Both the position numbers and the translations under genes were made by a program. A model generated the notes under the pieces. The model saw only the letters and a list, made by a program, of their open reading frames with translations. It had not been told where the DNA came from and searched no databases. From Catajapyx aquilonaris (lineage: Eukaryota), in assembly GCA_000934665.2 (NCBI GenBank), contig KZ538068.1, positions 1-64,000 on the forward strand: a stretch of 64,000 bases of DNA, written 5' to 3'. How positions within the stretch are numbered: position 1 is the stretch's first letter; each line of letters begins with the position of its first letter. This document shows, piece after piece, positions 1 to 38,898 of the stretch.

Positions 1-1074
1 CTAAGATTAGACGACTTTTCAGTTCTTAATCATTCCGGAGGGCAATTCGCCAACCTGCTAACAAGGAACCGTGTCGTATAACCCATTGTTATCGAATCGC
101 ACAATTATTTTGTTTCGCGGTTGCTGTTATTTCCAAGGTCCAAGTCCTTGGCCTGTCCTTGACTTTTATTGTCAGCTTAGTATGTACAAAAAAAAAAAAT
201 AGAAAGCTTGTGCAGTTACCTCCCTTCCATGAAAATGGATCGGAAGCAGCTAATCGACTATGAAACCGGGCCCGACGCTGTTTCGCGCTCGAATTTCCTT
301 TACTCCTCTTTTACATGCTGATTAAAACGCATTTTCGCACCAGAACAGCTGCAAACATTTTTTTGGACACCCCTTACCACTCACTTCCGCTTTTTTTTTT
401 TAACCTACATGCCCTACATCAGCCTACCATTTTGTTTAAAAAAAATCGGCAACCCCCACAGCTGCCCCCGAGTTAAGTTACCCCTTCCCGGAACACTCAA
501 CCCTTTCCTAGCAATCGTAAACACAAATCGTCCTTGCATTTTACAGCCTGCGTCACACACACACGCATGGCAACCTAAAAATTTTCGAATCCCCATGTTG
601 AACGTTCGGCACGTATACCCTACACCCCCTCTAGCTAAACAGTGTGTGTTCATTATAATAGCCCAAACCTACTTTGCCATCATCAGCATAATTCCGCCAG
701 CCAAATGTTTACCCTACCATCCATTTGTGAGAAAGTGTACACGTATTGTTTTCCTTTAATTGCAAATTCATTGAAATATAATTGCCCTCCTGATTACTGA
801 CCTCCTCGTTACACAAATTATTATGCCAGTATTGTCCGTATGTAACACAATACACCTTCTTAACATTATCGCACTTAAAATCTTGCATGTCATGAACCCT
901 AGCAAAAATCCACCGGATCGTAATTTTCTCCCTGACCCCTGACCCGATTCCGCCTGGGTGTTGCCCCAGGAAGACTTTCACATCGCACGTGTAAGCACAC
1001 ACTCAAATCATTTTTTTATTTTTTTTAACCACCCATAATCTACTCCCCATATCTGAACGTAAACTTCCACTTAC
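1..1074 (-). other. mbl: 5' part of the intron following the first coding exon
   Basis: Begins with consensus GTAAGT; no continuation of the Muscleblind sequence (expected GRC...) is visible in 1-1074. Confidence 0.88.
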
Positions 1075-1260
1075 TTTGATACTGTCGTAGCAAGCCGTGA
1101 CGCGGCCGTTCTGCACTTCCACGTTGGCCGGCGGGTGCGCGAATTTGCACTCCGTGTCAGGTCGAGTGCATTTGTTGCGCTGGAACTCCCGGCACACCTC
1201 CAGCTGCAGCCAACGCGAGTCCTTCACGTTGAGTATATTATTCACATTGACCATGGCCAT
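1075..1260 (-). CDS. mbl: Muscleblind (MBNL family) first coding exon, 62 codons, partial CDS continuing beyond the window start
   Basis: Translation [62 protein letters not shown] matches the Muscleblind N-terminus: [10 protein letters not shown] and C-x7-C-x6-C-x3-H zinc finger 1, then the start of finger 2. ATG at 1258-1260 is in strong context (GAGATGG) with an in-frame TAG upstream. Phase-0 donor AAA|GTAAGT at 1074-1069. Confidence 0.97.
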
Positions 1261-1340
1261 CTCGGAATTAAAAATCACACTATATGAGGGGTCTCTCTCA
1301 GAACTCTAGTTTCACAAGAGGTATGTTCGATATAAGTCTG

Positions 1341-1394
1341 TCACTGGTTCCCGCCGAGACTGGGCGTGGGTCTGCCGATGCAAGACTGCTCCAT
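1341..1394 (-). other. uORF in the mbl 5'UTR (MEQSCIGRPTPSLGGNQ*)
   Basis: ATG at 1392-1394 (GGAATGG context), TGA at 1341-1343, inside the predicted exon; translation not shown. Confidence 0.5.
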
Positions 1395-1550
1395 TCCTGG
1401 GGTATGGCGCCGTCGCCTCGGGGAGGGTTACTGAGCGGGCGGTGGCGGCGAGGTGGCTCCCAACCCAACTGCTAGGTGGCAGGCAGCGCGATGGTGGCGC
1501 CCGGCGAAAGTGTGACACTCCCCCCTTGCCTAAACCGGTACTGCGACTTT

Positions 1551-1571
1551 TCACTTTCGCAAACTGGACAT
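1551..1571 (-). other. Short uORF in the mbl 5'UTR (MSSLRK*)
   Basis: ATG at 1569-1571, TGA at 1551-1553, inside the predicted exon. Confidence 0.45.
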
Positions 1572-4245
1572 GAGGAGAGGGACACCTAAGCTCTCAAGGC
1601 AGCGGGGGTTTATCAAGCCAAGCGTGTGTAGAGAAGGGGGAGGAAGGGCTGCTCGCTGTAGCAATCTGTGAAGAAAAAAGGTTGACAAAAAGTTACAACC
1701 AAAGCTACATGGCAACAAGCGGTGGTCATCACTCCTGGTTCATTCAACCCCACCAGGCTCTTTTAGCGGATGCAACGCATCATGCTAGTAAAGCTACAAG
1801 ACAACTATTGGACAACCCTGCCGAATTTTGTTCCAAAAAAAAAAATCATTTACAACCCATAATCGCCGGATAACACAAAAAAAACCTGCATTCCACAGAA
1901 TGCACGTGACCACGCCGATGCACCAACAGGCCCTTGCACTTTTGCAGCCCTCAAGCCCTGGAAATAACCCGCTCACCTTGAATGCAACGGTCATTCTATA
2001 CTGTTCGGTTACATGAAACGCAGACTCTCTACTTCAATGCACCTGCATGCATGTTATAGCCAATGCCAGACATTTGGCACTTTTTTTTTCTTTCTTCTTT
2101 TACGAGTGGGTTTGACCGCCGGTTAATTCCAAGCGTATTGGCAACTGCAACGCTGCCATGGCATAATCGCAAGGTGAAGGTAAAACTAGTCACGCGTGCC
2201 TACCGAGTGGTTGACCCCAACCCAAATGTGCTGTAAAACCTAAGCCGCGCCGACACCCATCCTGTTCTGGAACAACCTGGCCAATATGCACTATCCGAAA
2301 AATTTTATTCACTACACACCACCTGTACCTATCCGACATTATTCCATGCATGTAAAATATTTCTTTTATTGCAGCGTCGGCCATCACACCTAACATGCTC
2401 ACCATCCTTGACTTTCACATTCTCAGCCAGAAATGGTCACCCATGACGTCACACATGCATTAACTATTCGTGACTCGTGTGTGGGCCGGACTTTGAAAAG
2501 ACCCTTTTCAGAGATGCCAATGACAAAAACACACACGCACCCCCAAAAAAATCCTATTCGCAGTTGCGGAGAGAGAGAAAAAAAATCCCCGCTGGCTTTA
2601 AAAGTTCGCGGCGATGCAAAACAGCAATATCCGTCACGGAGTTTTCAAAGGTCTCTATGTTGCGCTATCCCCTCCCACACCCACCCATCCGTTTCTATAT
2701 CCCCCCCTACCGGAGCACGTCTACCGAATATTCCCAAAAGCAATCAATACGATGACTAATGCTGCACTTCAAACACTTGCATGGGTTCCATTATTTGCCC
2801 ACAAGCGCTCTGAAACATTTCAAACGAAAGCCACCCCCCACCCCCCTCTTTTTTAGACCCAGACTCCACCGTGAGGAGAATTAAGTATGAACCCCCCAAT
2901 TTCCACAGAAAGCGTTACTCATTACCGGATTATAAATTTATTCCCCTTCTCTAGCATTTCGAGCACAAAGATGGCGGCCGCCACTGGGGGCAGCCATGTT
3001 GGGCAGTCGACATGTGAATTATATTTAAAAATTCGGGGTGTTTTAAATCGCCTTGATGCCGACCGGTCTGCCAAATTGTCGCCAGGTCGACCTCATTCGG
3101 TGGTGGCAGGAACATGCAACCAGGCACAACCATCGCGGGGAAACAGCTGCTTCGTGGTGACAGGAAACAACTGCTTCCAGACATATCGATTCCATCCATC
3201 CCCTGGTATTACTTTTTTGGGACCCACCAAAAAACAGGCTGTTCATTGCAAATATTGATGTTGCGCCATGAAAGGTAAACACTAAATTTGCACATTTCCC
3301 TATGTCACCCCCGGACAGTATTGTTGGCGAGGTTGGTGCACTGCTGCACTAATCTACTAATCGAATAAGGAGGGGTCTGTTGCAGCGGGTGGGGCCCCGG
3401 GTGGCGCCAGAGTGGCGCCGGGATGTCTAATCCCCTTCCTGCACGCAAGGGCGCCCTGGACCCTCCGACGCCGACGCCGACGCTGCGTGCCCAGGACTTA
3501 CCTACCTGCGCAAGTCCCCCCTTAACAAAAATAGCCTAAATGATAACCCCCCTCGATACACACGCATACAAAAAAAAATACAGGTCAAAAGAGGCATCGG
3601 CGTGTTTGGCGGTTGCTGCGGGTGAAACCGGCAATCCCCCTACCTGCAATCATTAAATTCATCCGCACAAGGCTGCTGATTCATGCACAACAGTTGCCTG
3701 CGGCTGATTGCCATCGCACGACAGGTCAGGCACCGACTGCCAATGACAAAAGGCTCGAATTTCGCATTTATTTTTGGGTGGGGAACCGCAGTCGGCAGGT
3801 CGCGACGCCCGATTGGAAATCGAAGGTAGTTTCATATCAAACCCAGGAGACCTGATGTATTAATAATGCGATCGCTGTTATTTTGCTCCGTACCCTGATA
3901 CTGTGATCCTGCCAGTTATGCAACCGAACTCTTTTGTCTTGCCCTCCCAATTTGTTGCTACTCTCTTAAATTCAAGTGGTTTCCTCCCCTAGAGCTTGAT
4001 TATCGGGAGCAAACTCTTCGGAAATTGTCCTGCACCCCGGAGGCACGTACATCTCCAGGTTTCTTTCAGGTCCTGTCAAACCCCCCCAGATCCCAGCTCG
4101 GATACCAAAGAAACTTACTACATCAGTTTGACCCAACCGAACAGGCCCCAAATTTTCACGCCTAGAACGTCCAATAACAATCAGAACAATACAATAAATA
4201 TTTGCTATAGATTCAGCACGAATAAAATTATTTAGAATCTCTACA

Positions 4246-4386
4246 TACAGGGTGTTCAAGATTCGTGGGTCACTTTTTGATAACTGATATCGCCCGAAGG
4301 TGGGTCGAATGTAGCAGGTGCTTTAGAATGAAGAACAACATGCTACAAAAATAACTGCTATCCGGCGATATCAGTTATCAAAAAGT
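4246..4386. mobile_element. Tc1/mariner-type MITE fragment with internal 23-bp perfect inverted repeat
   Basis: TA-CAGGGTGTTC at 4246-4257 is a typical Tc1/mariner end. ACTTTTTGATAACTGATATCGCC (4272-4294) is the exact reverse complement of 4364-4386, with an inner pair TGTAGCA/TGCTACA. Confidence 0.55.
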
Positions 4387-4414
4387 CAGTACAGTATGTT
4401 TGTCCCACGTACCT

Positions 4415-4591
4415 TACAGTACCCACAGCAGTGGGGGGGGGGGGGGGCTGCTCCACCAATCAGATCGGTGAATACAGTGCGGTACAAAAGAAATGCTCTT
4501 TTGAAACCCTACCGTGTATGGTCGCAATATTTAGGACACGCCTTTTTTGAGAGAGAGAGAGAGAGAGAAGTTAGGCTGTGGATATACTGTA
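4415..4591. mobile_element. Internally deleted copy of a palindromic TA-flanked MITE (same family as 57845-58073)
   Basis: Ends TACAGTACCCACAGC and GCTGTGGATATACTGTA are imperfect TIRs. 4451-4512 is 57/62 identical to 57957-58018, and the GAGAAGTTAGG(C/A)TGTGG segment is shared. Contains poly-G (4433-4447) and (GA)n (about 4549-4568). Confidence 0.65.
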
Positions 4592-7500
4592 ACCCACTTT
4601 CAGACTACTGAGAGTGCTGGAACTTGGCACACCGCTGTCTTATGATTAATATATCCGCTACTTGAGATAGTTCAACCCTTACGCACATTCACGGCGCAAG
4701 AAGCCGCACTACCCTCTATTTTCATAACGTTCCTTCTTCCAAATTGAGCCTTGCATAGTTCGTTATAATTTTGTTAACTTCGGGGTGCTTCCCCCCTGGT
4801 TTTTGCACGGCTATTCACATAAATTACCTATACAGATAAGAAACAGCGCATATTTTACAGTGCAAGATAAGGGACTTTAGTGCCTTATGCCTTAATTATA
4901 CGGAGCTCCAGCATTAGAGCCCCAGAGTTTGGAAAGCCCTCCGCAGCGAAACAACGTTAAAAAGTGTTTTGTTTGCAGAAAAGTTTTCCATAACCCCCCC
5001 TGCGGTATATCGGAAATCCGCTGGCCGGTCCCGGACTGATGCGAGTCTCGCATAGTTCCCTCCTATCACTAGTGTAGGAAAAATGCACTTGTTGGGAGTG
5101 GGGGTGCCGGCGGTTTATCCGGCACCGAGCCAGCATCATCCATTAGACTATTCCTCACACCGCCGCCGGCCACGTATCTATCCGCCTGCTGAAGAAGCTA
5201 TTTTTTACACACCCACCCCCCACCCCACCCCATTGCATTGTATCGCCTCACCCTCCAAACAGGGTGTCACAATATTCACGTAACAGCAAAACGTTCCAAG
5301 CAAACACACGTGCTCCACACATTCTTAAAAAAAAATCTGGCGAGGACCACCCTTAAATTTTCCGTCCCCTCGCAAGTTGTCGACATCTCGCAGCTGTTTT
5401 TCCGCGCCTGCTCAGGACCTAGGAACACCGGGGTAAAAATTCCTGCACTCAATTAGAGCCGCATTTAGCACGTCAAGAGTAAGTCGACAGGGTCCACCTC
5501 ACCCCATTTCCTCCGCGAAATTTTTTTCCCCTTCCTAACATACCAGGTAAGCCCTGCAAAAATTCTGCACATTGTTGTCCCCTTTTAATGTCAAGTGTAC
5601 AAAAATTCAATCCCTCCCCAAGTTTTTGAGAAATGCGCTCCCCCAAAATTCCGTCAGGTGGCATTATACGGGTGTGGGCAGCCCGGCAGAAAATGATGTC
5701 AGCGGACATTCCCCGTCCCCTTTTCCGTGCGATGACACTATTACCGCGAATAACTGCGCGGGGGCCCCCCCTGGTATAAAGGCGCCCCCTCGAAATGCGC
5801 GAGTTATGTTCATGTCTACTGCAAACTGGGAGAGGCCCATATATTCACCACTTATTTCGGTAGGATGACACCCCCCAACAACAACAACAAAAAATGCTGC
5901 ATTAGCCCTAATCCGACCCCCACACAGTTTGAAACCCCTAGTTCCTAACGAGCCGAATTACGCCTCGTTTACATCCCAAAAAAAATCCGGCCAATAGATG
6001 TCACCCATACGATATTCCCCTTCCCAAGCCTGAATTCTCAAACAACAACAACAAAAAGCACCACACACTGTCCTGAGGGGTCTGATGTATACGACATCAG
6101 GGCACGAATAACAAATTCATCGCTACGAAAAAACTGACTTCTTGGCCAAATCCGCTTCTTTCTGCGGGTGCAGCACTACACCGGAAGTGGATAAGACGGT
6201 GGAGGAGAGGGTAGATGTGGTGAGCAGGAGAGGGGGGGGGGACAGAGAGAGAAACCTACAGGGATATTTGCAAGGCAAGCCGGATATCCGCGGCTGTGAG
6301 ACGAGATCGATATGACTACAAAGCTCCCCCGCCAGATACACGGCCTTTTCTTTACAAATGCCACTGGGCATAGGGGATCGAGGGAAAAAGTGTGGGTGGG
6401 TCGACTCCCTAGTTCTAGAGGGGGGTAGTTATCTGCAGACGGAAAAATCAACAAAGTGGCCCTCATGAAAATGAGCCTGTCGCAATTACGGACCGTTTGT
6501 GAATTAACCACGGGTACGCCACGCCTCTTTCCTAACGATTATTCGGGTTACCTCTCCGTCAATTACACGTCGCATGCTTGCCGGGGCATCTCCACGCCCT
6601 AATTATAAAGTACTCTGAATAAATGTTACGCCAGTTGTAAATATTGATTAGCTCTATTGCAACAATCGAGGCCATGGTGAATGCTATGTTTAGTATATTC
6701 ATCCCGATCGCATACCATACACACGGGACATGCGGACAATACTCCCGAAATGAGTCAGTAGCACTTAGGCTGAATCGCAGTGCTGTGGGAGGGTATGAGT
6801 GGACAGTTGCAACGAGAGGAATCGATCCTCTCCGCCAGCAAATAACACCGTTCAAGTGTACCTTTTCGGCGAATGTGTCCAACTTTCAAGTCCATTTTTG
6901 GGTCTAATCCTAGCACGAAATAACTCCGACGGATGACACTTTGTAGGCATGAGGCCACTTCCCCATGGGTGCCGCACCAGTAGAGTGCGAAACCCGTCGA
7001 GACTTCCAAATCCCCAGTTTTCAATCCCGAAGAAGCAATTTCGTCGGCATTACTCTACCTATATGACACCGTGATTGGATACGCAGGACAGCATGGTCAA
7101 CTGCTTACAAGCACGCTAGATGCCAGTAGTGGCTCCCCCCATTCAACCACCGCGCCATCTAGCACAATCTACTCGACGCTTCAAAATGCTACATACTACC
7201 TATAGGACGCCCAGGGAAGGCTCCGGGGCCACAATCTCGTTTGTGGCAGGCTGCTGTTCACTTACAGCCGCCATGCAAATGCAATTCCTCCCATCCCGGC
7301 CGCTCGCAAATGGGAAAGGACAACACTTGCTTCTCCTTGGGATGCTGGATGCAGCAGGCGCCTCCATCTCTAAACGCCCATCACTATATACCCCCCAGTC
7401 CCCTCCCTCTTATTCATTTCCAGTATCTGGCCCCCTTCCAAATACGGCCTAATGTTTCCCTCTGAAATCTGAATTTTATCACAGGATTACACAGTCAATG

Positions 7501-8766
7501 AAAAGAGCGGCACTTTATACCAGACAAGATTGTCCGGCCCTTTTGCGACATTACATATCCCGATCCCGTAGGGGTTAAAAGGGCTAGGGATTTGGTTAAG
7601 ATCCGCCTGGATATCCAGATCACACGGAGTGTCTGCATTGCAGGTGGGGTTCTTCATCTTTCCCCCCCGATACACTGTCAACAAGAACTGCCAAGCTGTT
7701 ATTATCACTCTTGCCAGAGCAAACTACGCCAGCCAGTAGATCTAGGCTTATTTCTAAGCTGCAATATCCGATGAGTCAGCCGGAGCAAATGGGTCCCATG
7801 GGCCTGGAGTGTATGATAGGGAATCAATTGTACGCCAGGCTTTATTCCTGCACTGCATGAGGAAATAGCCTTGTCATAAATGGCAACGTTCATTAGTTGG
7901 CATGCATGTAATAACGGATGTGGCTCGATACTGTACATGCGGAATCACAGTCAGAAAATCACACCCGTCATTTCCTATCGTTCCGTACAGCCTCCAGTGC
8001 CAATGTAACACCGCATACTGTATGGCAATAAGCCGCTTACCATTTCTCCCTGAGGATACTGTGCGTGTCTTACATAACAAATGCATATCACACCATTCTG
8101 AAAAAAAATACCGATCTCACTTTCTAAAAAAGCACAATCTGGCTGCATTTGATCCACCTTAACTCCACGACATTGCGTGTTTCCAGGCGCCTTCCTAAGA
8201 CAAACAATGAATTAAGTAGCTTACACAGAAAACAGAATCTGGAGCAATAATGCTCGCTTACAATTCAAATCGCCCACGAACGATATAGCGCCATGATTTA
8301 TTATGAGACATAACTCAGCCTGCAAATACCCCTGATTTACTCCCGATTTGCGCCAAAAAATCCGCATATTTTTTTTTACGGCCAACTCCCAAGAATAATA
8401 ACTCAGCCCCCCAAAAAGCATCTAGGCACATACTCATGATTTATGTCCGTGACAACTCCGACGTAAAGCCAACGCTCATTTTTAAATGCGGTCTGGCAAA
8501 TGACGTGACAGACCACAAGAGTAGCGCGCGGGGGGGGGGGGGNGGGGGGTTGTAGAGTTTTGCAGTCTTTGAAAGTGGGCTAATGCCAGGAGGTGGTTGG
8601 GGAGGGCTTTGCAGAACCCCGAAGGCGGCGTCAGTGTCCGTGTTATGACGCTGCGTCGGCGACGTCCGCCATAGTCGGGCCAGGCAGGCGCCTCCGGCCC
8701 ATCGATATTTTCCCACGCCGTCTCCGTTTCCATCCGCAATACTGGATTGTGCCAAAGATGGCCGCC

Positions 8767-8814
8767 GCACACAGATGCCGCCTGTGTATACCACATAGAT
8801 GGCGCCTGTGCATA
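8767..8814. repeat. Tandem duplication, 2 x 24 bp, each unit self-complementary
   Basis: GCACACAGATGCCGCCTGTGTATA and CCACATAGATGGCGCCTGTGCATA, 20/24 identical. Confidence 0.75.
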
Positions 8815-11036
8815 GCCATTTGCAGTACACGCATCCTGGAATTTTTTTTAAAACCCCCTCCGGCTCGTTTACATAATTCGAGTGACATTTTCGCAAGCGT
8901 CACGCCAAGTTTGGGCGTCATTTTCCAAAATCGCCGCTCCCGGATAAAGGGCGGCCAGTTCCAAGCCCGGAGAGAAATTCGCCGCCATAATCAGCGAAAT
9001 AAACTGTCTGTGATGGAATAACACCTCATTGCCAACCACCATTAACCCGGGGCCTAATTTAAGATATGTCTTACAGCCGGGCCCGGTTACGACTCCGATT
9101 GTGACCAGTGTGCATCCCAAATTTAAGCGCTAATCACCTGCCCTTAGATAAGACGTCCCCCCTATTCGCAACTTACACGATACCGACGATTTGTCTCATC
9201 CGCGCGATTAACATGTTGATGGAGCCCACTCGTAGCACAAATATCCCCGCTCGTATGGTCCCTGTGCAAAAACTACATATCGACCGTCACATACACACAC
9301 GCTCTCTCCCCAAAAATTGGAAATTATACGGCCGGCGCTAACAAGCCGCGCGAATTTAACCTTTGGGTCATTCCGCCAAATTGAGCTACAAAACCTTCGG
9401 TCGCGGCCGCTAGCTTATATAATTATTACGCCGTCGTCTTGGGCCGGGGAAACGATCGTTCTGATTGCACGCCCGCAAATTCAAACTTGAGGGGATTAGG
9501 CCGCTCTTCATGTTTACGGTACTATAACAGTGTCACATCAGAAAGGTCGTATCGACTTGCGCCAACTCTAGCGTCGCAATCCAAATTTACTCGGTAAATG
9601 TTATGTACCAAAATTTCCTTACGAATAGATGGATCAAAATCTTATAAGGTTGGAGGTCACCTATATAGTAGACACAAATTGATTTTTGCTCTTTTGCTTG
9701 CCCACCCACCCATCCATCCATCAGTTCACGGCCAACTCAAAACCCCTCAAGCCATATTCGTCTTTGCTCTCTCCCAACCCTCCCAATTAACTAATTTTGG
9801 CATAGATTTTCACCACCTACAAGAACATCGATAATAAACTTTCACTACTCCCTTACTTTACGTCATCGGAAATCCAATTCCGGATGGAGACAGTAATTCG
9901 CAGCAGCCTGCGGGACAAACTTCCGACGAAACTTGGCCGCCCCAATTCTCCCCACTAACATTATAGGCAAATCGACGCTCTCTACTAAATTAATCGACGT
10001 TATACCGCCCCCCCCCCCCAAAAAAAAAAGTGTCATTGGTACGGGTCCTGAATATCGGACGCGATCCAGGTCACTCCAATTCCGAGATGCCATCATCAGG
10101 CTGGGGTGGAATCACGAGTAGTGCCCTATGTGGTAATGTTCTGGATTATAGGTAATAATTCAGTCACCATTTTTGTTTGGAGACATTTCGACACAAACGT
10201 GCCAGATTCACCTGCAGCAATTTACTTAATTATGACAATACATTCACAATATTTAATTGTGAATGCCTCGTATAGATACCGGGTGTCCAACCTAACCTAA
10301 ACATGACCCAGCCATCTTGCACTCAACATCCCCCTGGACGGCATGGTAACAGATTCTAATTCCGGAGACGAGACTCTGCGCCTGGGTTTATTCATCACTC
10401 TAGCTCTGTGGCATGCCAGGATATGGCCGACATGCGAGTTGGCAAAAAGACCCGGGGTCCTGCAGACTACAGACCGCCATGGAAAGCCTAGCCTTTCCCC
10501 CGCGACAAACACTGATCTAATTAGAGATCGATTCCCAGCGTCACTCTGCCAGGCCTTGTTAGGAAGCTGCGTCGTCCGAGGTGTCGTGACTAGGCGCCTC
10601 CCTCTTCATCAGCCTCTTATCCCGAGGACAATGACGGGGGTGGTGGAGGAGGGTGGTCTAGCATCATATGGAAGAGAGAGGCTTACACACCCTGACCCCT
10701 GCCCCCCTTACAGCTCTCCCCATTCCAGGGGCCAGGCCTTTTGTCTCGCACAAAAGTGCCCACACATTTCCCGGGATTACCCGTCCATGCAATGGGTCGG
10801 ATTATTGCATGTGACGCCTTCAAGTGCTCCAGGGTTTCTGGATTTAGCCCACTCCACGGTTTTCTTCCTCTCATCACACGCTTCATTTTCCCTCCCGCAG
10901 AGTGTGTAGATTGGGGCATAACGTGCGTAATATCATATACGGAAAGGGAGCGAGGGCTGGGTTAAAACCTGGCAATTATTCTATGGGTACGTGTCGACCG
11001 CGCCCATATTCGAGAAGGCTTACCCCTGCAGGATAT

Positions 11037-11329
11037 TTATTTTATTTATTTTATATATTTTACCCCGTGATATGCCTACATAGGTCTTTTTGGGGGGTGG
11101 TACACCACCATCAAATTTCTTGTACTTTTTCTTCAATCTCCGGTGCAAGGAAACAGGACAATGGGAGATGATAGGGCTTTTTGGGGAGGTGAGGTTGCCA
11201 GACCTCCAAAGGTGCAGGTCAGAGACTCTCCCGACGCAGGTGAGGGGAACTCCCAGGCAGGGATCGAACCTAGGACCTTTCCCTCAGCAAGCCGAGACGT
11301 TACCATCTCGGCCACCACACCTCCCCCCA
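11037..11329 (-). mobile_element. Full-length tRNA-derived SINE (family B) with 17-bp target-site duplication
   Basis: Minus-strand Pol III A box TGGCCGAGATGG (11314-11303) and B box GGTTCGATCCC (11270-11260); AAAT-rich tail at about 11037-11060; flanking direct repeats TTACCCCTGC(A/G)GGATAT at 11020-11036 and 11330-11346. Confidence 0.88.
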
Positions 11330-12726
11330 TTACCCCTGCGGGATATGCTGGCCGGAGAGCAAGAGAGGCGCTTGGGTTGCGTGGCTGCCAGGATGAAACT
11401 GATAGATTCAAGGACAATCAACGTGATGATGAAATATTCAGACTTTAACTGTTAGTTTACAAGGTTGAATCGTTATTACCCATTGTGACGTCATTTTATA
11501 AAGCTCAATGTGGCATGCGTGAATGTCAACTTGGAAGACATACATTTCTTCGAAGAGGGCTCGCCACGAATGACAACATAATTAAATGAAAGCAGGTTAC
11601 GTCACAGTACCGCATGCATAGCTATATAGCCTCCCATGTGACACATTCATTTCAGCGAATCTCATTTACTTGCGAACTAAAAACATGACATATGCTAGGC
11701 TACGTTCATATACACATTACTTAAGAGAAATTTAATGCAATTTTGCCTAAGGAAACCAACAACAAGTAGTAGGTTCTACAGCAGCATGCAATATACTTAG
11801 CACGAGGTTCCAGGCGAAATGCCGCATGAACACGCAACGCATCTTTTCTTTAAAATACCATAGCAAATTGCACTTACAATGATTTTATATACAGGTCTAG
11901 TGCGTCATAATTACGTGCCCATTCCTCAAAAACACGTTGTATCAGTCGTAACTTCTTGTTTCGAACGAGGTTAAGGGTCGGTTGCATAAACGCAAATTAG
12001 GGAAAGTCTTCAATTATGTGTAGGTATTGACAAGGCATATTCTGACACATCGTGCTGCACCCCTTACAATATTCGTGTGCTGAAAAGTCACTCAAAAACT
12101 GTTATATCACTTTTCCGACGCAAACAGGATGGTCATATAAAAAAAAAATTAACATCCTATTAATGCTGCTTACGTGATGCAGTATGCGGAAGAAATTTGA
12201 AACTTTCCTGCATATCACTCCCCGTTTACAGACAGACCCACATCCTGCTGTGCGAAACAGCCTTCAATAAAAATGGCACATTTAGGCCTAATCGGTTATC
12301 ACGATGTGGTCGACAACTCATGCTGATAGTGTCACACGGTCAGTTTCACAACCCAACATTTTAAAATCACTCTTCTGGACATCTGATGATCTGACAGCAA
12401 AATGCGGGTCAGTTTCCTCATTCTTGAACAAACAGACGTGTTGCCATGAACTAACGTCAGGATAATGAACAGCCGCCGGACACGCAACGTACAATCCTTA
12501 AAGAATGGCTCATAATTTAGCAAAAAAAAATCGCTAACACAATAATGAAGAATAAACAGAAAATCTCTGAATTATTTGAACAATTGTCGACAGCTGTCGC
12601 CACAAATCGTTTTATGCAAACCCTCCGTTTGCAAACGTAGCTGAGAAACTGGTAGTTAGTTGAGTACTAGGGTAACGCACGACTGCAATCTCTCTCCTCC
12701 CACACACACTTTCAAGATGAGTTTTT

Positions 12727-12747
12727 TCTCTCTCTCTCTCTCTCTCT
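12727..12747. repeat. (CT)n microsatellite
   Basis: Direct reading. Confidence 0.9.
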
Positions 12748-15700
12748 CACCACGTCGCAGATTCATGGTCTGCCATGATAAGTGCGTGGGAGTACAGAGT
12801 GCGAAAATGGCAATTTCCATGACGCTATCAGCACTGACCTTGGCCACTGTCATAAATATATGCATTATCATAATATGTGCGTAGCGCATCAGACCATGCC
12901 ATGTCTGCAAGCCAAGACCGTTATGTTTATGATCCGCCCTAACATTAAAACATGGTGCACGCTAAATCCTGCGCATCAACTATAAACACACCAAGCTCTG
13001 AAAAATGGCACGTCTTCACATCAGGCTATTTTCATCCTCTAAGTAAGCAGATCCACCCTGGCAAATCCTATTAGGGCCCTAGCATTGCTACGACTTCCCA
13101 ATATTTATAAGACTTTTTTTTAAACTGTCCATATACAGTAGGTAAGTACTATCGATTTATTTTTCAACCCACCATAAATAGTTCAACCTGTACAAAAAAT
13201 TTGATTCAAAAAATTAACAAAATTCAGACCGTCAAATCATTCAAAAAAACCTGCCAAAAATTCCGCCGAAAATTTACCTGCTAATTAAGCACGCACAAAA
13301 TAACGAGCCGAGAACTAATTAAACTATTTCCCGAATGAATCGTAGGCCCCCGCCGCTTGGCCTGCGAGAGGAATTTAATTAATTTCATTTATGTTTCATT
13401 ATTTTCCAACCGGTAGGTCTAATTACAAATGGTACAAATGGCGTTCGGAATAATTACGCCTAATATAATTACCCCAGTTCGCAGGCTGGAATTTCGAACT
13501 GTGTCCCTATACCCCCGAAAATTCATATATTATTACCCGAAACTGACCTTTTCCCCCCCGATATATGTTACCCATTTTTTAAAAACAAAATCCAACTTTA
13601 TGACTGTATAGTTGCACGACTTCGTGATCTATCACGGTGACACAGTTCCATCATTACATAGACCAGCGCTTACACGCTCATTAATTTCATCGCCGAGCGC
13701 TGAATGGTTGCCAATTTATTGCGCGGTACGCAGCCCCGACCAAGATTAAAATTGGTGATGACCCGCATTAATAAGTCCGGTCTTAACGTCAGCCTGTGTC
13801 AGCTCGCCTAAAAAAAAGGTCATCACCACTTTGTTAGAAATAATCCGGACGCAATTAGTATTTTCCGCACCAATTACAACCCCAGATTTTACTACAAAAA
13901 AAAACCCCCCATAATATATGTCCACTCGCAACCTTGGTAGAGGTCTATCATATACATACCCTCCAGCCAATATCCTTGAGAAAAACACCTATCGTCCACT
14001 TGGGGACAAGCACGAGTGCGTTGGCCGCATCCTAGACAAAAGAACCCCGACTGCAACTCCCCCTTTCACACCTGAAAGATGCAAGCAAACCTCAAGACAT
14101 TGTGCGGTTGCACTTCTTTTGTGGTCCAGGGTCCTCCAAAGCCACACGAAGCATGTCCTAACCCTAGTTTTTTTTTTTTTTTTTTGCCCCGTTTTGTCTC
14201 ACTACACGCCCTTCTCGTGATGAAACGTTCGAGTGGGCACCACCAACGTTGCCGAAATGTTGCGAGAGAAAAAAATCGCGCGCTAATTGTTCTGAATTAT
14301 TAAAAGAGGTCTCTGAACATGCCAGTTTTTAATGTAAACGTAGCCAAATGCTATTAACATGAGAGAAATGGGAGGGGTTAAAAATGCGCTGGAGGTTACG
14401 TTTAAAAATGAGTGCATCGCGGTTATTAAATTTTAAACTAATATCGCCACACAATTCGAGGGGGGGCCCCCAAACCTAGTTCAAAGACAGCCGGTATGCA
14501 CGGTAATCGAGAGTTTCAATCTTGTCAGGCAGTAAAAATTAATCAGTAAGGTTTTATCATCTAACGAAATTCTGGTGTGTTGACATTGTTGGCAGCAATA
14601 CGGCAGGGTGAACTGTCAACTCATAACGTGGAACCGGCGCGAGGGCTATTCGGAACACCCCTACGTACTATGTACACAAGCGCACAAAAAATGAGCGCGA
14701 TACATGCTCATAAAAATACCTGCACGTTGTCACGACTTTCTTTTGTAATTAGCACACAACATTAAGGCTAAGTGCCGTAACGAACATATTAAAAAGAGAT
14801 ACATTGTGGTACTTACTACGCTCTAAAATATTTTCGCATCTCAATTTCTCACTCTTAACACTGAACGATATTTGCATATATTTTTTTCGATTAATTTTAC
14901 CTCAATTTTAATTCATTTACAGTGTAAGTCACTCTGTACTTTGTACTGCGACTGAAAGCCGATCCACATTGCTACAGGACATATTAATTGTGCTCTAGAA
15001 AGAAACAAATACAGACACGGCATGCATTAAATTCCGCAGCAACCCCCGCACCAACCTGCGGCTATAAAACCGACCGTATCTCCTCATGTAGCGTGACCTT
15101 TTATGCACCTCTATAAAATACGTTTCTGCGACGTACAGTATGCTACTAGCTGCATGTAATTCTGCATTCGCTTCCATGCCACGCCCAGCGTGCAATAACT
15201 ATTTCCCTATAAATCGGGAATTTCTGCTTTCCATTACGGCAAAGAGTTTTTTCTGTCTCATTTTTTACTCCCCCTTCCCCTCCCCCCTCCCCCATGAAAG
15301 TCATGCGATATTCTAGTATCAGTATCGTACCAGGAACCCGTTCAAAACTATTCACTGTCTGCAATAATAAAAAACTGCGACTCAAGACAGGTTCCATTTG
15401 GCTAGGTACCTTGATTACGTTAAAAAATTGCAATGGGCGTTGCCTTCCCAAGCCTAATGGAAAGGGTGCAGGTAATGCCCCGGTGGTACGTTCCGACGAT
15501 GCAAAACCAGCCATGTTATGAACGATTCTGTGCCCTTGATTCCACTTTTTTTTTTCTTCACTTTCCCAAGGCGCCTTGCTTGCACCAAACTTTCCAATTA
15601 CGAGCGGTCGAAGCACTTTACACCATCTCCCACCAGAGGCCATTAACCCCTTTTTCCTTGATTAACCCATACAAGACCGAAAACACATTTTGACGCGAAA

Positions 15701-18221
15701 AATTCATTGAAATTACCTTTTTCCGTTGTTACTATAGAAGCCACGATCAAGCAGCCATCATACTGGACATCTGAAAGGGAGACGATCACTTTTAGTTTTT
15801 ATGTACCGTAAAAAAAATAGACGGGCTAGACATGTTAATGAGACAGTAGAAAGTGGGCCAAGGTAAGGCATGTTCGATTGCGTAATTTCACGTTGGAGGT
15901 TATACATCGGCCAATTCTTAAAACCACACGACCCACTTTTTCTATAAGAATTTTTATTATAGGTACAATTTTTGTTGCTGGGGGGTAGGTTTATTCACTT
16001 TCATATAAACCGGACAGCGGGAGGGGGGGTGGTCACAACAACCGCATTTTAATTAGTCCGCCGTAATGAGCTCGACTCATCATGCAAAACCGAAACCTTC
16101 GGTACAAAAGCCGCAATTTGGAGGGTCGGGCACAACTGTACGGGCAATACGCAGTGCGTACATCCGTGCCAAAATGTTAAACATCCTTTCGGGCAAACAC
16201 GCACAAGGCCTCGGGGAGTCACGAGTTGAAGTTTGCACACAAAAAAATATGAAAGAACCAAAAAAAAAAAATGTATACTGCAGAGGCCTGCGCCGTTTGT
16301 TTCAAACTGCAGTACAGGGTCACATGTCGCCCCCTCATGCAATTTCACGCCCCAACTCAGATTTGTGGGAATTAACTACTATACCGATTTTTACGTGCTA
16401 ACACAGATTGACATCACAGATTAGCCTTCTATCCGCATAATTGCTCATCCACACCGAAGAACCGACCTGCCTTATTAAACGCCTCCCCCTGAAGAAACGG
16501 GCCACGATTTTTCCACCATTACCCCCATAATGAGGTCATGTGTAGCGTAATAAAACAGCCCCCGTTCGATAACCCAAGCGCCGTGTAATTATGACTCACC
16601 CACCTGCACCTTTTAGGTAATCAACCCCCCAATTTCTTCTTAATTCCACCTAACCTACCATCAAGCATATGACATGTCACACCTGAAATTTCGCTACTCT
16701 CTGAGAATTCCGTATCTTTCCCTTATATTCTCCTCCGTTTTACATTGGCACTGTGATCAAAAGAAGGTCACATTCTCCAGGCCCGGAATGCAACATCAAA
16801 GCATCCCTTTCCATCTTCTCCCCACTCCAAAGATAACCCACCCACCCACCCACCCAGCTCTCTCAAATAAGTTCTGATACGAAAGGGATTCTCCTTGTGC
16901 GCTACACTACCATTTCCATCACAAAGACAACAGACGTCAACCTAGATTATTTCTTCTTTCGACAATATCTCTCCCTAGTCCCTGGAAGCGGATTATCCCT
17001 ACATTGTGGCAGCAGATGTGGACTGTTTGTAGATCAGAATCGTAGGTCAACGCTCTCAGTATATGCAACAAAAGTGCATCTCAGCCCTTTAAAACCGCCA
17101 TGTTTTTGGTAATCGGCGTCGTAATTACTCTGCCAGACTCCATGCTGTTCATCTTCCCACTCATTACAACAGTCCTTCCCTTTCTGTCATGTCCTAAATA
17201 TTCCACTCCAGATAGGGCGGGTTTGTTGTCGCTACCCTAAAGCCAGAGGGTACCGTCGGGAATACTGGCTACGAAGAAGAAAAACGCCTACGGTCCTGCA
17301 GAGGGCGCGGTGGAAAAATATATATAAAAACACCAGGATGAGAAATAAAATCAATAACTGTAGCCAGGATTTATCACCTCCTGGAAATAAGACGGATCCA
17401 CCCCAAAAATGTGCAATTAATCCTATAGCAAGAGGCTAGTCTGTTCCTATAGCCCGGATGTAACCTGGATCGAGGCTAGCTAAGTTGATGCCACCTATAA
17501 CCGACAACCGAGCCAAATAGTCCCAGTAGATATCTCCAGACCTAACCGCTCGTGAAAATCAGTTTTGTCACCTCCCAGCCAAACTAATTTCCCTCAGGTC
17601 ACTAATTTAACGTCGGGTGGCGCCAAAGGACCTCCCTTTGCCCAAATACCAAAATCGAGTGTCCCACACTTTAGGTACCCTCTCCCATGCCTGAAGGCAT
17701 ACCTACCACTCACTACTCCGCACGAATTACTTTGGCATGAGTTCAGCTCCCGGACTCACTTCCCTCCTTTGAACCCCTAGATTGCCGGCATAATGAGACC
17801 ACCCCCGCCCTCCCATCCATTTTTTCGCCTCCACGGAAGGTACAAAAATTCTTATGGATTCTTGTCGGAATTGACGCGATCACCATTTTTCCCCCCCTCC
17901 TCTCTCTCCCTTAATGAAAGAAATAGATCGGTTCCTCCAAGTCGAACCTATTATTCTTAGGAGGTAGATGGTGGGTGGAGGAGAAAGACGGGAAGGGGAG
18001 GGAAAGATTGCCCGGGGGAAATCCAGAAACTCCTCCGAAGCTCATCGGCCTTCAGGAAAAGGTAGGCTCGGAATTGCAAGTCGACGGGAACCTGTGCAAG
18101 TTTAATCCTAATCAACATAGCCGCTCCGAGACCTCATTTCTCCACTCCCGCCCGCCCTTTCCGACTTACGGAGCTCGGTTTCGGGGTTTTCCAACCAAGT
18201 TCTACCCCGCTCCATACACTA

Positions 18222-23908: not shown

Positions 23909-24241
23909 NNNNNNNNNNNNNNNNNNNNNNNNNNNNNNNNNNNNNNNNNNNNNNNNNNNNNNNNNNNNNNNNNNNNNNNNNNNNNNNNNNNNNNNNNNNN
24001 NNNNNNNNNNNNNNNNNNNNNNNNNNNNNNNNNNNNNNNNNNNNNNNNNNNNNNNNNNNNNNNNNNNNNNNNNNNNNNNNNNNNNNNNNNNNNNNNNNNN
24101 NNNNNNNNNNNNNNNNNNNNNNNNNNNNNNNNNNNNNNNNNNNNNNNNNNNNNNNNNNNNNNNNNNNNNNNNNNNNNNNNNNNNNNNNNNNNNNNNNNNN
24201 NNNNNNNNNNNNNNNNNNNNNNNNNNNNNNNNNNNNNNNNN
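23909..24241. other. Assembly gap (333 N) flanked by poly-A
   Basis: Run of N. Confidence 0.99.
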
Positions 24242-27962: not shown

Positions 27963-30900
27963 CCCTTTCCGTGGTTTGATTTTTGCTGCAGTCGCCATGG
28001 ACAAACAATGTTCCTCTGGAAGAAGTGCATACAGGTGAGGCTACACTACTTGTATGAAGCCTGGATTGAGGCTACAATCGAATGACCTACAAGGTGTTAG
28101 AAATCCCATAGCGCGGCATCCAGCGAAAAGGCTCGTCTGTAAATGGGGCAAAGGCCTCGTCCCAGCCCCAGCCATCGCTCTCCCATGCAGATTGCAGGCG
28201 GTCACACCCGCGTCCGATCGATACCCGGTCATGGTCAGGTATACCCCAGCCAGAAGAGCCTCCTTTGCTTCCAGTCTGTGCAAAATTCACCATCTCTCCA
28301 CCCCACTCTCCTTCCTTTTCCCTTTGCTGCCTGGGCTCAAACCGTGTTTGTTATTCCTCACTTCATTGTTTTGCACACGAAAGCGTCATGAATATTTTAC
28401 TCGCAGCCGAGGTTTCGTTTACAGAATGGCCCTTTTCCTCCTGCCGCCCCTGCAAAGCTCAAGATGGATTTGCAACCATAGACTCTGGGACCCCGGATCG
28501 GTTGTAGCCGCCGCCCTTTCTGATATACACCGCTCGTAATTACACGTCCTAACAATTAGGCCTTCATCAAAATTGCACCGGGTTGACGCTGACTCCCGGT
28601 TAATGTTTTATCAGGGCTTCCACTTCATCTTTATGCAAATGCAAACATGATTCCATCCTCGGCCCGCCTAATCCGTTTGCGGCTCTTCCCCTTCTCTTAA
28701 GCAAGATCCCTGTAGTATAGACAATGCATTGGAATTGTGCGCTTTATTTTGGGACGTGTTGCCCAAAACCCCGGGCCACAAATTTTCCAACAAGTTCGGG
28801 GGAAGGCCCTCCGTGGACTTGGCGACAAAGGACTACAAATGAACCGGTCGGCAAAACCGCCACGGCATATGAATGCTCCCGTTATCATCGTGATTTACAT
28901 TCGGAAAAGGGGGAGGCCCTTCCTGTACCAATCGTCATTTGCGACTACAACCTTCCATCATAGTTCAATTAATTCGCAAAGCATGTTTCAAAAACCGGAC
29001 AAACACCGGAATTCCTGAGTTACAAGCCATTACGTAACATGGAGAGTATCCAAACATCGTGACAAGTATTACGTCATTCTTGGCATAACAGGTTCGTTCA
29101 TTTCGAGGGATTTTCATGTATCGCGAATAACATGAGCGGTACAAGGCCGTGTAACTATTGTAATAAATGTTATAGCCCATACAACTACTGTATTTATAAT
29201 GCATTCAGTAATGAACATTTTCAATCAAATATAGGCTATACCCCGTATCGCCTCCAAGTCACATAACAAGCCGTTTGTACTTCTCCATAAAGATTTAATA
29301 TCAATGAAAGCTTGATATGCGTATTATTGCACACTCCATGCATAAACACGAATAAAGTACCCTTAATGTGTACGTAGTTACACTTCAATGACTAAAACGG
29401 TGTACCAATACGACCATTACACGTGCAGTGATGTTACGTAGTGTCGTATGATACACATACGAAAGTGTGTAATATTGCGCATACCAAGTTTTGATGACAT
29501 TACAAATGATGAACCCTGAACTGCCCAAATTCCATCATTTCACCACAGCTTCTAACCATCGATTTCCTCACTTCTTCCCCCCCGGATTCCGCCGGATTAT
29601 TGCAGATCCCCAAGTTCTGGACACAGCCAATGCCAGTACGCACTTTCTTGTTTTTTTGGCTCGAACACCCCGCGACGCATTTTAATTTGCAGCGTCAACT
29701 ACAACTGCATTGCAGGGTCTATCCAGCAAACCTGCAAAGCTCCCCCCCCCCCCTTTCCTAACACCCTCTATTAGGCCATTACCATGCAGAATAACCTGAA
29801 CTCACGAAGACCTACAGTGCCTGAGAACTGCGACCGGACTACCCCCGACAGCAATACCCTTCGATTTAAGTAATTCCTTCGTTCTGCATACCAATTTTTT
29901 TTCTCTCTCTATCTCTTCCCCATCCGGATTTTCCGCAGTGCATTAAATCCACCACCTCCGGAACCCTTAGGGACCAAAGGCGTGTCATCATCCGTCGTGT
30001 CTTGACCGGCGTTATCAGGCCCCCGGATCCCAATATGAAGAAGTGCACTTTTGTGTTCTCCTCCGAAATGACCGTCTCACGTCCACACGGAGAGCATCAT
30101 CCTGATGAATTTGACTCGCGTAAAAGCTGCATCCAGGCCTGGGGAGGTAGGAGGGGGAGGGGGGAGGGGGATCCAGATAAACGAGCCCCAAACTGAACTG
30201 ATTCCCCCTAGTTGGTTAAATTGAGGAAGCGAGGTCAAGGCGGCGCCTGCTCTCCATCTCCCGACGACGTAAATGTGCGCAAAATGGCCTCGAGATGCGC
30301 TACCGCCATATACATCAGCATTACCATCGCCCTTTTGTACACATAGCCTCCTCCGCAGACCATCCCTCTATACCAGCTAGCCTCCTCCCAGGTCCCAGCC
30401 ACAACTCGCCTCAACTCCATCTAGCGAATCCTGCAGGTGTCACAATGCAAATATATCCGGCTATTGAGCTTGACTAAAACGAGCCAACCCATTAGCCCGT
30501 CGACGGAACAAAAGGCGAAACAAACTGGGCCTAGGCGCCGTCGTCCTTAGCAGACATCGACACAAACCGGCTCTGGAGCTGGCACAAAAGCATGGGGGGT
30601 CCCATTTCTCCTGCTCCTTCCTTGGCAATTATGCTCCCGTTCGTAACCAACACGGAGCATTTAGATAAAAGGGAATCCGTGTCGCCAAAGCTCTCCAAGC
30701 CGGTGATTTATTCCAAATTAAACACTTCCTGCACACTAATGCCCTGAGAAAAAATTCGCAGCAACCCGGGTTCACACTGGCATCGTTGAGATCCACCAAT
30801 CATCAGGTAAGCTACATCCTCCAGGGGCGCCATCTCCAGGTTCACCCATGTCAGCCACGATAAGACCCCAGCTAACGCTCCAATGGCTTCACACTGGCAC

Positions 30901-31010
30901 GGGCCCCATGGTACTGCTTTGCAATGCAAGTACCCGAGTTCTACATGCTCCTTCTCCTAGATAATACCCTCCAGCCTCCTCTCCGTCTGCACCGGGAGGC
31001 GGCTGAGGGA

Positions 31011-31076
31011 GAAGAGGCGTTGGGGGGACGAAGAGGCGTTGGGGGGACGAAGAGGCGTTGGGGGGACGAAGAGGCG
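31011..31076. repeat. Perfect minisatellite, 3.5 x 19 bp (GAAGAGGCGTTGGGGGGAC)
   Basis: Identical units at 31011, 31030 and 31049, partial unit at 31068. Confidence 0.95.
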
Positions 31077-34000
31077 CGGCTGTGGGAGGTATAAGGATGA
31101 GTACGGGTGGGGTCCATTTTGCGTCCTCGGAGGCGGAATGTCACCTTGGAAGTCGAGCGAAATGGGAGCATACAAATGACGGTAATCCGAGGGAGCGTGT
31201 GAGGGTGCAGAGAGAGCCCATCCACGCCAGTATTTATGGGTCCTCTCGCACCACGCGCTTCATTTTTGAAATTCCTCTACCCGCTGGGATATTATACCCG
31301 GACCGAACCTCACTTCGTCCCCTACATTTTTTTTTTAGTGGGGAGGAAAAGTCCCTCGTGTCAAAGGATTGCCGGAACTCTGTCCCCCCTTTTCGCCTTA
31401 TGAAGTCCGTCCGTGAAGTCGCATTTCCTCGACACAGGAAGTATGGAAGTCCGCCTGGAAACGCTGCGGGTCTTCGCCACATAAAAAGGGTGGATGGGAC
31501 CAGGGCCAGCCAGTCTTTTTGTACTGCGACACAGTGCTGCAACCTCCCAAATATTGCAAATTTTATTCCACAAAAATTTCATTCTATAAAATAATCATCA
31601 TCGCCGGACATCAACTGTCCACTTCATAAAAAACCGTGCCCACTGTGCATATTACCGGTTGCAAGGCTTCTGGGATAAAAGATACATGACTCGCGACTTG
31701 CCACATGCGGCAACGTCCAGCATTCATTTGCTATGCACATGACCGCCGCCCAGTAGTGCTACTTTTTTATGGCGCTATTTTGGCCACGATAGTCTCCCTC
31801 TGCAAGGGCTGTTAGTTGAAACCAAACATACGCTCTCCTAGCCCTTATTCCTAGAGGCCTCGTCCTATGAGATCCCAACATTATCAGCGTCTGCCAACAC
31901 GACCGCAGCCCCGATTCAACCACGCGTTCTCATTAAAATTCGATGCTATTCTGAGTAAACGGTCATGAAATTCCTGCATCCTCTCTCACTTTCCAACCCA
32001 CGTTCTACAGATGGTCAACCATGCAGACAAAAAGCCTCTCAATAATTGATAGCTTCGAGTATGATTTACGCTGCCTATCAAGTCCTCCCGGGCTGGGCAA
32101 TATGCCATATAGGCCTTCACATATCTGATGCCAATCACATCCATCCTTCTTGCCTGATGTACCCTGACTATTTTTGCCGCCCGCAAATTCAATGCCAAAT
32201 GGCACGACACCACACATAAATTTCATCTTAACGGGCTATATCTCCCTGAAATACGTGGCAGCCATAGTAACTACCACAAAAATTTACTCCAATTAAATTT
32301 TTTTCCGCCTCTTCATCTCCAGTAACACCGCAGTTTCCCAGGGCGAAGAACTTGCACCGCTCAACCGCTCCAGGGCCTCATTTCCGCCCAACGTCCAAGC
32401 CAAAAACGGCCCCAAGATGGCCGAAGAGAATGGCCAATCCCTCCACCACCGCCACCCTTTATTTGTACAGCGCACTGCATTCCCGCCCACTCATATTACC
32501 TTCCTCAGTCACGGACGACTTGACATTATCTCCCCTCCTATATACCCTCCCATTCGCCATCCAACCAGGCTCATCCTCCAGATTGTTTCATCATTTCGAT
32601 CATCTCGGATAACCCACTCTTTCGGAGAAGTGGGCACGACCACCGATGATCGTGGCCGGTGCATATACTGCGCAGGGTGGTCCACGATCAACTCGACCAT
32701 GGCTTTAACCCAATATTGGAAACACAGTCTGTGAAATTTGCGTAATTAGGTTTAATACGAATCTAAGACGGTTCACGCTGTATTAGCATCGTTCGGGCAA
32801 AAATTTAATCACATCTGAAGGTTAGTAATAAATTCCTCCAGTTCCCTGCCCACCCTTCTGGAGTGGTCAAATCCACTTTAGCACCCTTCAAAAACCGACT
32901 TGTTTATTACTGGCAGCATCCACCCTTGACACACCGCTTGAAAAAACACTATCCATACAATACCATATGAGACGCAGCATACCACCCGAAATAAATAACT
33001 TAATCCCAAACGGGCCGTATAACTCCCCGTAATTTATCGACCCATCCAATTAATCCACGAGGTAATATACGGTCCTTTCTAAAATCCCGGGCATGACGCA
33101 CTTGCATTGTCCATATCACACACCTACTGGCACTATCAGCAAGGTGACGCAAGTATAAACTTACGTCAAGTACACACAGCCTTGACCTCCCTGACCCCCC
33201 AACTTGACCTCCTGTGACATCCCCAAACAAAACACAACCGCTCTTTTACATTCAAGTGGTCCCACCCACTCCGGAAAAAAACCCCTCCCATTATCAAATT
33301 ACCACTCCAATATTCCACTTGTTGCCCAGCTCCGCGCCATCTTAAATCACAATTTCAAGCTTTCCAATTTTTTTCCCTCTCTGTAACTCAGCCTATACGA
33401 TTAGCCTCCTTTTTCATCCGGAAGATTCACTATATGAAACCCTCCCATCGTGCTCCCCTCCCAGTTAACTCAATTCCCCTACCCTCTCTCCTAAATTGAA
33501 TCCCTTCATGCAGTGCTCATTATTCTGTCGAAATTGATACACCGCTCCCAAGTTTTGGCGTGAAAGCACTAGATTTTGGTGGGAGGAAATAGGTAGGAAA
33601 AGGCTTCCTACCCATCTTACTAAAACTTCACGATGGGCCCAAATCTGTCCTAACATAATTGTAGTCTGCTCTTCGACAACCACAGAGTTAATCACTCCAG
33701 GCGATGTAACTAAGCGGTAAAAAAAATCGAAAAAAAGGTAGCAAATTGAATTGTCCTATAGCTTTTTTCTATTGAATTACTGGGGGTATGGATCGAAACT
33801 TGCTAATCAATATTTCAGATTCGCATATTCGCCCATTATGTCTATTATTATTGTGGTTTTTCAAATCGACTTGGACGGTAATTAAACCCCATTTTTTCCC
33901 GAAAAAAATCTCGCTTCACATGCCATTAAGCGTAAAATTTCCCTCCCGTTTGATCGCACAAAACAAAAATGGGGCCAGGCAGCATGGGGGGGAAAACATA

Positions 34001-38878: not shown

Positions 38879-38898
38879 NNNNNNNNNNNNNNNNNNNN
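38879..38898. other. Assembly gap (20 N) next to poly-C
   Basis: Run of N. Confidence 0.99.

Follow-up and report, generated by a model that had tools for sequence, protein, structure and literature searches.

The start-codon exon of a muscleblind gene in Catajapyx aquilonaris is linearly spliced and is a candidate source of a circMbl-like circular RNA

We analyzed a 64,000-nucleotide (nt) stretch of the Catajapyx aquilonaris genome (contig KZ538068.1, positions 1 to 64,000; hereafter the window), in which a 591-nt feature on the minus strand, running from 1665 to 1075, had been predicted to be the counterpart of the exon that gives the circular RNA circMbl in Drosophila. Sequence comparison and assembled transcripts together identify this feature as an ordinary, deeply conserved start-codon exon of a muscleblind gene, which is internal in the transcript and is spliced linearly. 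Our preferred explanation is that this start-codon exon of an arthropod muscleblind probably also gives some circular RNA. That a circle from this exon also yields a real, functional protein of 85 amino acids (aa), as had been suggested, appears unlikely.

The exon is 591 nt (3 x 197) long. Its acceptor lies in the context CAACCTTTTTTCTTCACAG/ATTGCTACAG, where a pyrimidine-rich tract precedes the CAG/AG, and its donor, ATCAAA/GTAAGT, follows directly after 1075. The exon holds 405 nt of 5’ untranslated region (5’UTR; 1665 to 1261, 57.5% G+C), a start codon at 1260 with G at both −3 and +4, and 62 codons (1260 to 1075) that reach ...YDSIK at the donor, so that the boundary after DSIK is in phase 0. 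The 5’UTR also contains two upstream open reading frames (uORFs) on the same strand, one of 6 codons plus stop from the ATG at 1571 to 1551 (MSSLRK), and one of 17 codons plus stop from the ATG at 1394 to 1341. These features reproduce every coordinate of the original prediction, which had described a strong acceptor, a perfect donor and a single exon carrying the 5’UTR, the ATG and the first zinc finger. The proposed equivalence to exon 2 of fly mbl and to the corresponding exon of human MBNL1 also held, since both the content (5’UTR, ATG and first CCCH finger) and the phase-0 end after DSIK are shared. For MBNL1, the equivalence of the two exons follows from the structure of the MBNL1 gene and from the passages cited below.

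The linear splicing of the exon was read from assembled Logan contigs of two public runs; contigs of this kind drop rare forms. The first run (X1) belongs to a related organism, was guessed to be RNA and matched with 0.10 of words, and the second (X2) matched with 0.92 of words and has no library type on record. Neither is recorded as RNA, but because contigs of both are spliced, both runs are of RNA origin. A 1193-nt X2 contig covers 1074 to 1665 with no other letters and two one-base gaps, and then joins 1665 to 15717. This joint skips 14,051 nt, is bounded by CT..AC on the plus strand, which is GT..AG in the sense direction, and has 55 letters on its shorter side. It defines an upstream intron from 1666 to 15716 (GT..AG, minus strand), which begins with the donor AAAAAG/gtaatt, and a 54-nt 5’UTR mini-exon from 15717 to 15770 on the same strand, preceded by the acceptor ...tccctttcag and followed by the donor gtaatt. 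About 165 further letters of the X2 contig lie beyond the 54-nt exon, indicating at least one more exon upstream. At the other border, the X2 contig continues for 381 letters past 1074. A 575-nt X1 contig, which differs at 3 of 188 coding nt, departs from the window at the same position; its next 30 letters, in the sense direction and after a shared G, spell GRCNREKPPC, which is the next muscleblind exon. Of the downstream intron, the window thus includes 1,074 nt from its start (1 to 1074, minus strand), and the remainder lies beyond. Therefore, both splice sites of the 591-nt exon are used in vivo in linear RNA. The original prediction had named two findings that would speak against it, namely that linear RNA uses a different acceptor or that the exon is itself the first exon. 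Neither occurred; the X2 contig uses the acceptor at 1665 and not the CAG at 1655, and its joint to 15717 makes the exon internal. In linear mRNA, the 591-nt exon follows the 54-nt 5’UTR exon, which lies 14 kilobases (kb) upstream, and precedes the next coding exon (GRCNRE...).

A 5’UTR contig of X1 also aligns to the window, where its blocks within the exon are confined to 1482-1518 and 1532-1570, with a further block at 15750-15768 that has a loose end at 15768. The 54-nt exon starts with ATGTCCAGT and reads as a 7-codon uORF (MSSMMAA, then stop), and the uORF at 1551-1571 opens with the same nine letters. Both of these uORFs lie in or beside blocks that align in X1 (15750-15768 and 1532-1570), and they may be conserved regulatory uORFs. 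Within the 14-kb intron, X2 also has unspliced contigs at 14198-14805 and 15045-15228, with no other letters and with depths of 4.6 and 2.4, compared to 34.6 for the mRNA contig. The first of them terminates at a genomic run of about 20 A (14167-14186). These contigs are not exon-like and look like the products of oligo-dT priming on pre-mRNA or of an assembly break at low complexity. In the same intron, many partial X2 contigs of about 88-95% likeness, with a summed depth of 72.8 and loose ends on both sides, match 11063-11330, which looks like a dispersed repeat or a transposon fragment expressed from elsewhere in the genome.

The encoded protein identifies the gene as a muscleblind/MBNL CCCH zinc-finger splicing regulator. 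Residues 22-49 match the Pfam family PF22628 (CCCH zinc finger) with 42 bits against a cut-off of 27 (E 6.2e-11). Over the 62 aa, identity is 97% with annotated muscleblind or muscleblind-like proteins from Panulirus, Macrobrachium, Penaeus, Procambarus, Eriocheir, Portunus, Oratosquilla and the bee Xylocopa, and 87% with a Drosophila montana isoform; an alignment of 10 sequences contains 45 invariant columns. The exon and its coding part are clearly no product of chance. The closest N-termini are those of malacostracan crustaceans and a bee, and since the top identity of 97% is common to several decapods, a stomatopod and this bee, the protein points to an arthropod, probably a pancrustacean, and to no particular species. 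No protein among the matches of the 62-aa N-terminus is 100% identical to it, and the N-terminal extension MVSxGVPN of decapod muscleblinds is absent here. Past ...DSIK, the relatives continue with GRCNREKPPCKYFHPP, which is the second finger. Since they run on into finger 2 at this point, the 591-nt exon encodes finger 1 in full but no more of finger 2 than its first Cys, so that the earlier description of its product as a single-zinc-finger protein is a fair one. The exons further downstream lie outside the window.

The boundary after DSIK is itself conserved among relatives. A search for short proteins returned 356, of which 120 (34-109 aa) were listed; the collection is clustered at 90%, and the proteins are cluster representatives. 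After DSIK, 99 of the 120 continue with V, one ends and 20 continue otherwise. A V at this position corresponds to GTN, indicating that these models run on into an intron that begins where it does here. Furthermore, we retrieved 80 metagenome or metatranscriptome loci of the relatives, among which the contig of one protein with a non-V tail (P0023) is not included. Of the 63 loci that carry the junction motif, 23 continue with GT and 39 with GRC, GKC or ARC. In one metagenome locus (L015), the codons after DSIK, past position 1746, are AATAAAAAATAAAG..., which read NKK and then stop and are neither GT nor GRC. The 20 nt after DSIK do not recur upstream in that contig, and its continuation may come from an alternative terminal exon or from a different joint.

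The case for a circle comes from the same exon in other animals. According to the cited passages of PMC9352392, circMbl arises from the second exon of fly muscleblind and is called conserved from flies to humans, the MBL protein promotes its formation, at least in cell culture, and the circle makes up more than 70% of the exon-2 signal in fly heads. Those passages, together with parts of a 2025 preprint (10.1101/2025.10.31.685782), describe mammalian circMBNL1, and an MBNL2 circle, as the conserved counterpart from the equivalent exon. As for translation, the portions of Pamudurti et al. 2017 (PMC5387669) that we cite report circMbl ribosome footprints at a stop codon that is exclusive to the circle, a circMbl1 band running just below 10 kDa and, for the longer circMbl3, a peptide detected by mass spectrometry. 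The background claims of the original prediction, that the equivalent exon circularises in fly and human, that MBL promotes this and that fly circMbl is translated, agree with these parts of PMC9352392 and PMC5387669. In the literature collection searched, no paper joins circular RNA (circRNA), muscleblind and crustaceans.

Since circularization of the equivalent exon is reported from Drosophila and from mammals, it probably occurs here as well, and by this analogy a 591-nt circular RNA from it in nerve or muscle has a slightly better than even chance. Back-splicing of the exon would consume pre-mRNA that is otherwise destined for mbl mRNA; therefore, the main effect of the circle would be in cis. 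Judging from its motifs, the circle might also bind MBL through a cluster of YGCY, the core motif of MBL/MBNL, in its 5’UTR (1409-1506, minus strand).

We made a simple count of YGCY motifs on the sense strand and compared it with shuffled sequences. The cluster at 1409-1506 is mostly CGCC, with CGCT and TGCC at 1488-1478. It holds 9-10 motifs per 100 nt, where the mean of the window is 1.24 with a standard deviation of 1.18, and ties for the densest in the 64 kb. The 5’UTR maximum of 10 per 100 nt compares with 4.6 ± 1.3 in mononucleotide shuffles and is reached by none of 1000. The X1-aligned block 1482-1518 overlaps the cluster. On this basis, the cluster fits an MBL-binding exon. Several observations weigh against circularization. 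First, CGCC accounts for 8 of the 18 YGCY motifs of the exon and lies in a GC-rich patch, and the exon as a whole reaches only z = 1.5 against dinucleotide shuffles. Second, the flanks in view are not enriched: the 14-kb upstream intron has 11.7 YGCY per kb where dinucleotide shuffles give 13.7 (z = −2.45), with z = −1.1 for the proximal 1 kb, and z = 0.6 is obtained for the 1,074 nt by which the downstream intron extends into the window. Third, a search for pairing between the upstream intron and these 1,074 nt found no complementarity bridging the exon beyond A/T runs; the best match spans 25 nt at 84% and does not exceed the same-strand control (E = 0.044). At last, no back-going joint is among the two joints listed for X1 and X2, although contigs are not evidence of absence, and the X2 contig is linear through both exon borders, which indicates that no abundant alternative branch split it. 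The cis hallmarks of circMbl are therefore mixed, with the exonic motif cluster present and flank enrichment and intron pairing not. The proposed circMbl circuit is supported as far as the equivalence of the exon, its internal position and the 14-kb upstream intron are concerned, and finds no support in flank YGCY enrichment or complementarity in view.

Two further sequence features are of note. A (GA)n tract at 4548-4569 is perfectly complementary, over 21 nt, to a (TC)n tract at 12722-12749, which lies 8.2 kb away within the upstream intron; because both are upstream of the exon, they cannot bridge it. A second patch with 9 YGCY per 100 nt is found on the minus strand at 59161-59260, beside a GC-rich 19-nt repeat (59158-59194).

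The strongest alternative is that the exon is a purely linear, constitutive coding exon, any circle from it being rare splicing noise with no regulatory role. This matches what the contigs contain, in that only linear joints are seen and one X2 contig crosses both borders, and it agrees with the lack of motif enrichment or complementarity in the visible flanks. Moreover, a circular signature, in which the 20 nt after the junction recur upstream, occurs in 0 of the 63 motif-bearing loci of relatives. However, the exon is reported to circularise in both flies and mammals in the cited passages of PMC9352392, so that its loss here would be an exception, and contigs cannot show absence, while the downstream intron is visible for 1,074 nt only. 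We therefore regard a purely linear exon as possible but rather doubtful, and retain the start-codon exon that probably also gives some circular RNA as the better explanation.

The original prediction in its full form holds that MBL controls back-splicing of the exon, as in flies, and that translation of the circle starts at the host ATG and yields a functional 85-aa one-finger protein with a lineage-specific tail of 23 residues. The prerequisites for it are present, namely an internal exon, an end in phase 0 and a stop 23 codons past the junction. The YGCY cluster of the 5’UTR also speaks for it, as does the precedent of translated fly circMbl with its junction-stop footprints and band of about 10 kDa in the cited parts of PMC5387669. 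When the donor at 1075 was joined by script to the acceptor at 1665, 23 codons were added up to a TGA at 1596-1594 (the stretch 1665 to 1594, minus strand, read as a tail only if back-spliced), giving 62 + 23 = 85 aa. Use of the CAG 10 nt further in (1655) gave 62 + 34 = 96 aa, the last of which coincide with the residues of the uORF opened by the ATG at 1571. Both calculations reproduce the predicted ones, including the 34 added residues and the MSSLRK end. The longest stop-free runs in the frames of the circle are 100, 87 and 57 codons; since no frame is free of stops, rolling translation is excluded.

Since the exon ends in phase 0 and the next in-frame stop lies 23 codons into the 5’UTR, the 85-aa frame follows mechanically. 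Stop codons make up 3.7% of the 5’UTR triplets, from which a mean tail of about 26 codons is expected and a tail of at least 23 codons has a probability P = 0.42; the other two frames have tails of 37 and 16 codons. The 23-codon tail is therefore no longer than chance predicts, in line with the stop distances of circRNA reading frames, which are described as roughly geometric and near the junction in the consulted part of Pamudurti et al. (PMC5387669). Furthermore, the tail stretch 1597-1665 has no alignment in the 5’UTR contig of the X1 relative at 88% likeness or more, although 1482-1518 and 1532-1570 do align there, and the tail of this window is carried by 0 of the 120 listed short relatives, among whose 90%-cluster representatives a same-species member could be hidden. 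The proposed lineage-specific C-terminus thus has a chance-like length and a sequence that does not align in the one relative compared. In a blastn comparison of the sense strand of 1-2000 with the 80 distant loci, the best 60 of 72 alignments all fall within 1262-1069 and cover coding sequence only, with no 5’UTR similarity among them; the tail is therefore not comparable across those species. The AU-rich regions on which ribosomes are described to land during the scanning-dependent initiation of fly circMbl (2025 preprint 10.1101/2025.10.31.685782, in the part consulted) have no counterpart in this exon, where no 30-nt window reaches 70% A+U. Together with the flanks that show no MBL motif enrichment and the contigs that show no junction, these observations make the full form of the prediction quite improbable. 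Its broadest version, in which a non-insect, or at least non-dipteran, arthropod makes circMbl and translates from it an 85-aa one-finger protein with a circle-only C-terminus, is in our estimate more improbable still.

A short one-finger protein could also come from linear RNA, by reading through the donor and polyadenylation within the intron. The frame stays open for 23 codons past the donor (1074 to 1003, minus strand; open reading frame 1003..1260), again giving 62 + 23 = 85 aa, with an AATAAA at 1020-1015, which follows the donor by 54 nt and directly precedes the stop. Relatives often have read-through models of 71-109 aa, with V-initial tails in 99 of the 120 listed, and NCBI annotates short muscleblind isoforms in bees and ants, with comparable entries from Penaeus indicus and Oratosquilla. 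We nevertheless hold this route to be unlikely as well, because no X2 or X1 contig covers 1-1073 (although contigs cannot establish absence), the exact 85-aa product of this read-through has no entry in a collection of 15 billion proteins, an open stretch of 23 codons and an AATAAA are both likely by chance in an A-rich intron, and many such models may be pre-mRNA or annotation artefacts.

The start-codon exon that probably also gives a circle has the following consequences. The present result annotates the first coding exon of muscleblind together with an upstream mini-exon and a 14-kb intron, and supplies a list of the cis hallmarks of circMbl at this locus. Back-splicing, if shown, would extend one of the few positionally conserved circRNAs to a further lineage, placed between flies and mammals, and would allow a test of whether the reading frame of the circle, and not just the circle, is kept. 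If the translated circle were true, circRNA-encoded muscleblind peptides would be an ancient arthropod trait with fast-evolving tails, and if the intronic AATAAA read-through were true too, a protein of this size could be reached in a second way, from linear RNA.

The remainder of the window contains the following features. An Rfam search of the whole 64 kb gave 0 matches. From 1 to 52000, the plus strand has a steady excess of C over G (in 2-kb steps, the GC skew ranges from about −0.05 to −0.29), which falls to about 0 beyond 52 kb; G therefore exceeds C on the sense strand of the muscleblind gene. The skew may reflect how far the transcription unit reaches, which would put its promoter near 50-52 kb. 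The highest G+C of the window (0.524) is found at 30001-32000, which includes a 19-nt GC-rich tandem repeat at 31007-31076 (3.7 copies, 98% matching) and may act as an alternative promoter or as some other regulatory island within the gene. At 23909-24241, the assembly has a gap of 333 N, which is followed by a run of 30 A, and five further N runs are located at 8543, 26389, 36563, 38318 and 38879-38898.

Two known systems invite comparison with the exon described here. The short linear muscleblind isoforms (NCBI X13-X18 of bees and ants, and the entries from Penaeus indicus and Oratosquilla oratoria) are alike in that the 62-aa N-terminus is followed by a short unrelated tail, for a total of 71-109 aa. 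They differ in that their tails are mostly V-initial, corresponding to read-through of the GT donor, and in that they are linear gene models, not back-splice products. Compared to circMbl(2), the Drosophila circMbl from exon 2, three differences stand out. First, several MBL sites are reported in the fly mbl introns and multiple sites in circMbl itself (PMC9352392, in the passages cited), whereas the visible flanks here are not enriched in YGCY. Second, the exon here has no AU-rich stretch, and its tail is unrelated to anything comparable. Third, the circle, its dependence on MBL and its translation are reported in the fly, while the exon here is known from sequence and linear contigs. In other respects, the two agree closely: both are the same exon of orthologous genes, carrying the 5’UTR, the host ATG and the first CCCH finger and ending in phase 0 after ...DSIK; both are internal exons behind a long upstream intron and contain an exonic YGCY cluster; and in both, the would-be circular reading frame from the host ATG stops soon past the junction, within the 5’UTR.

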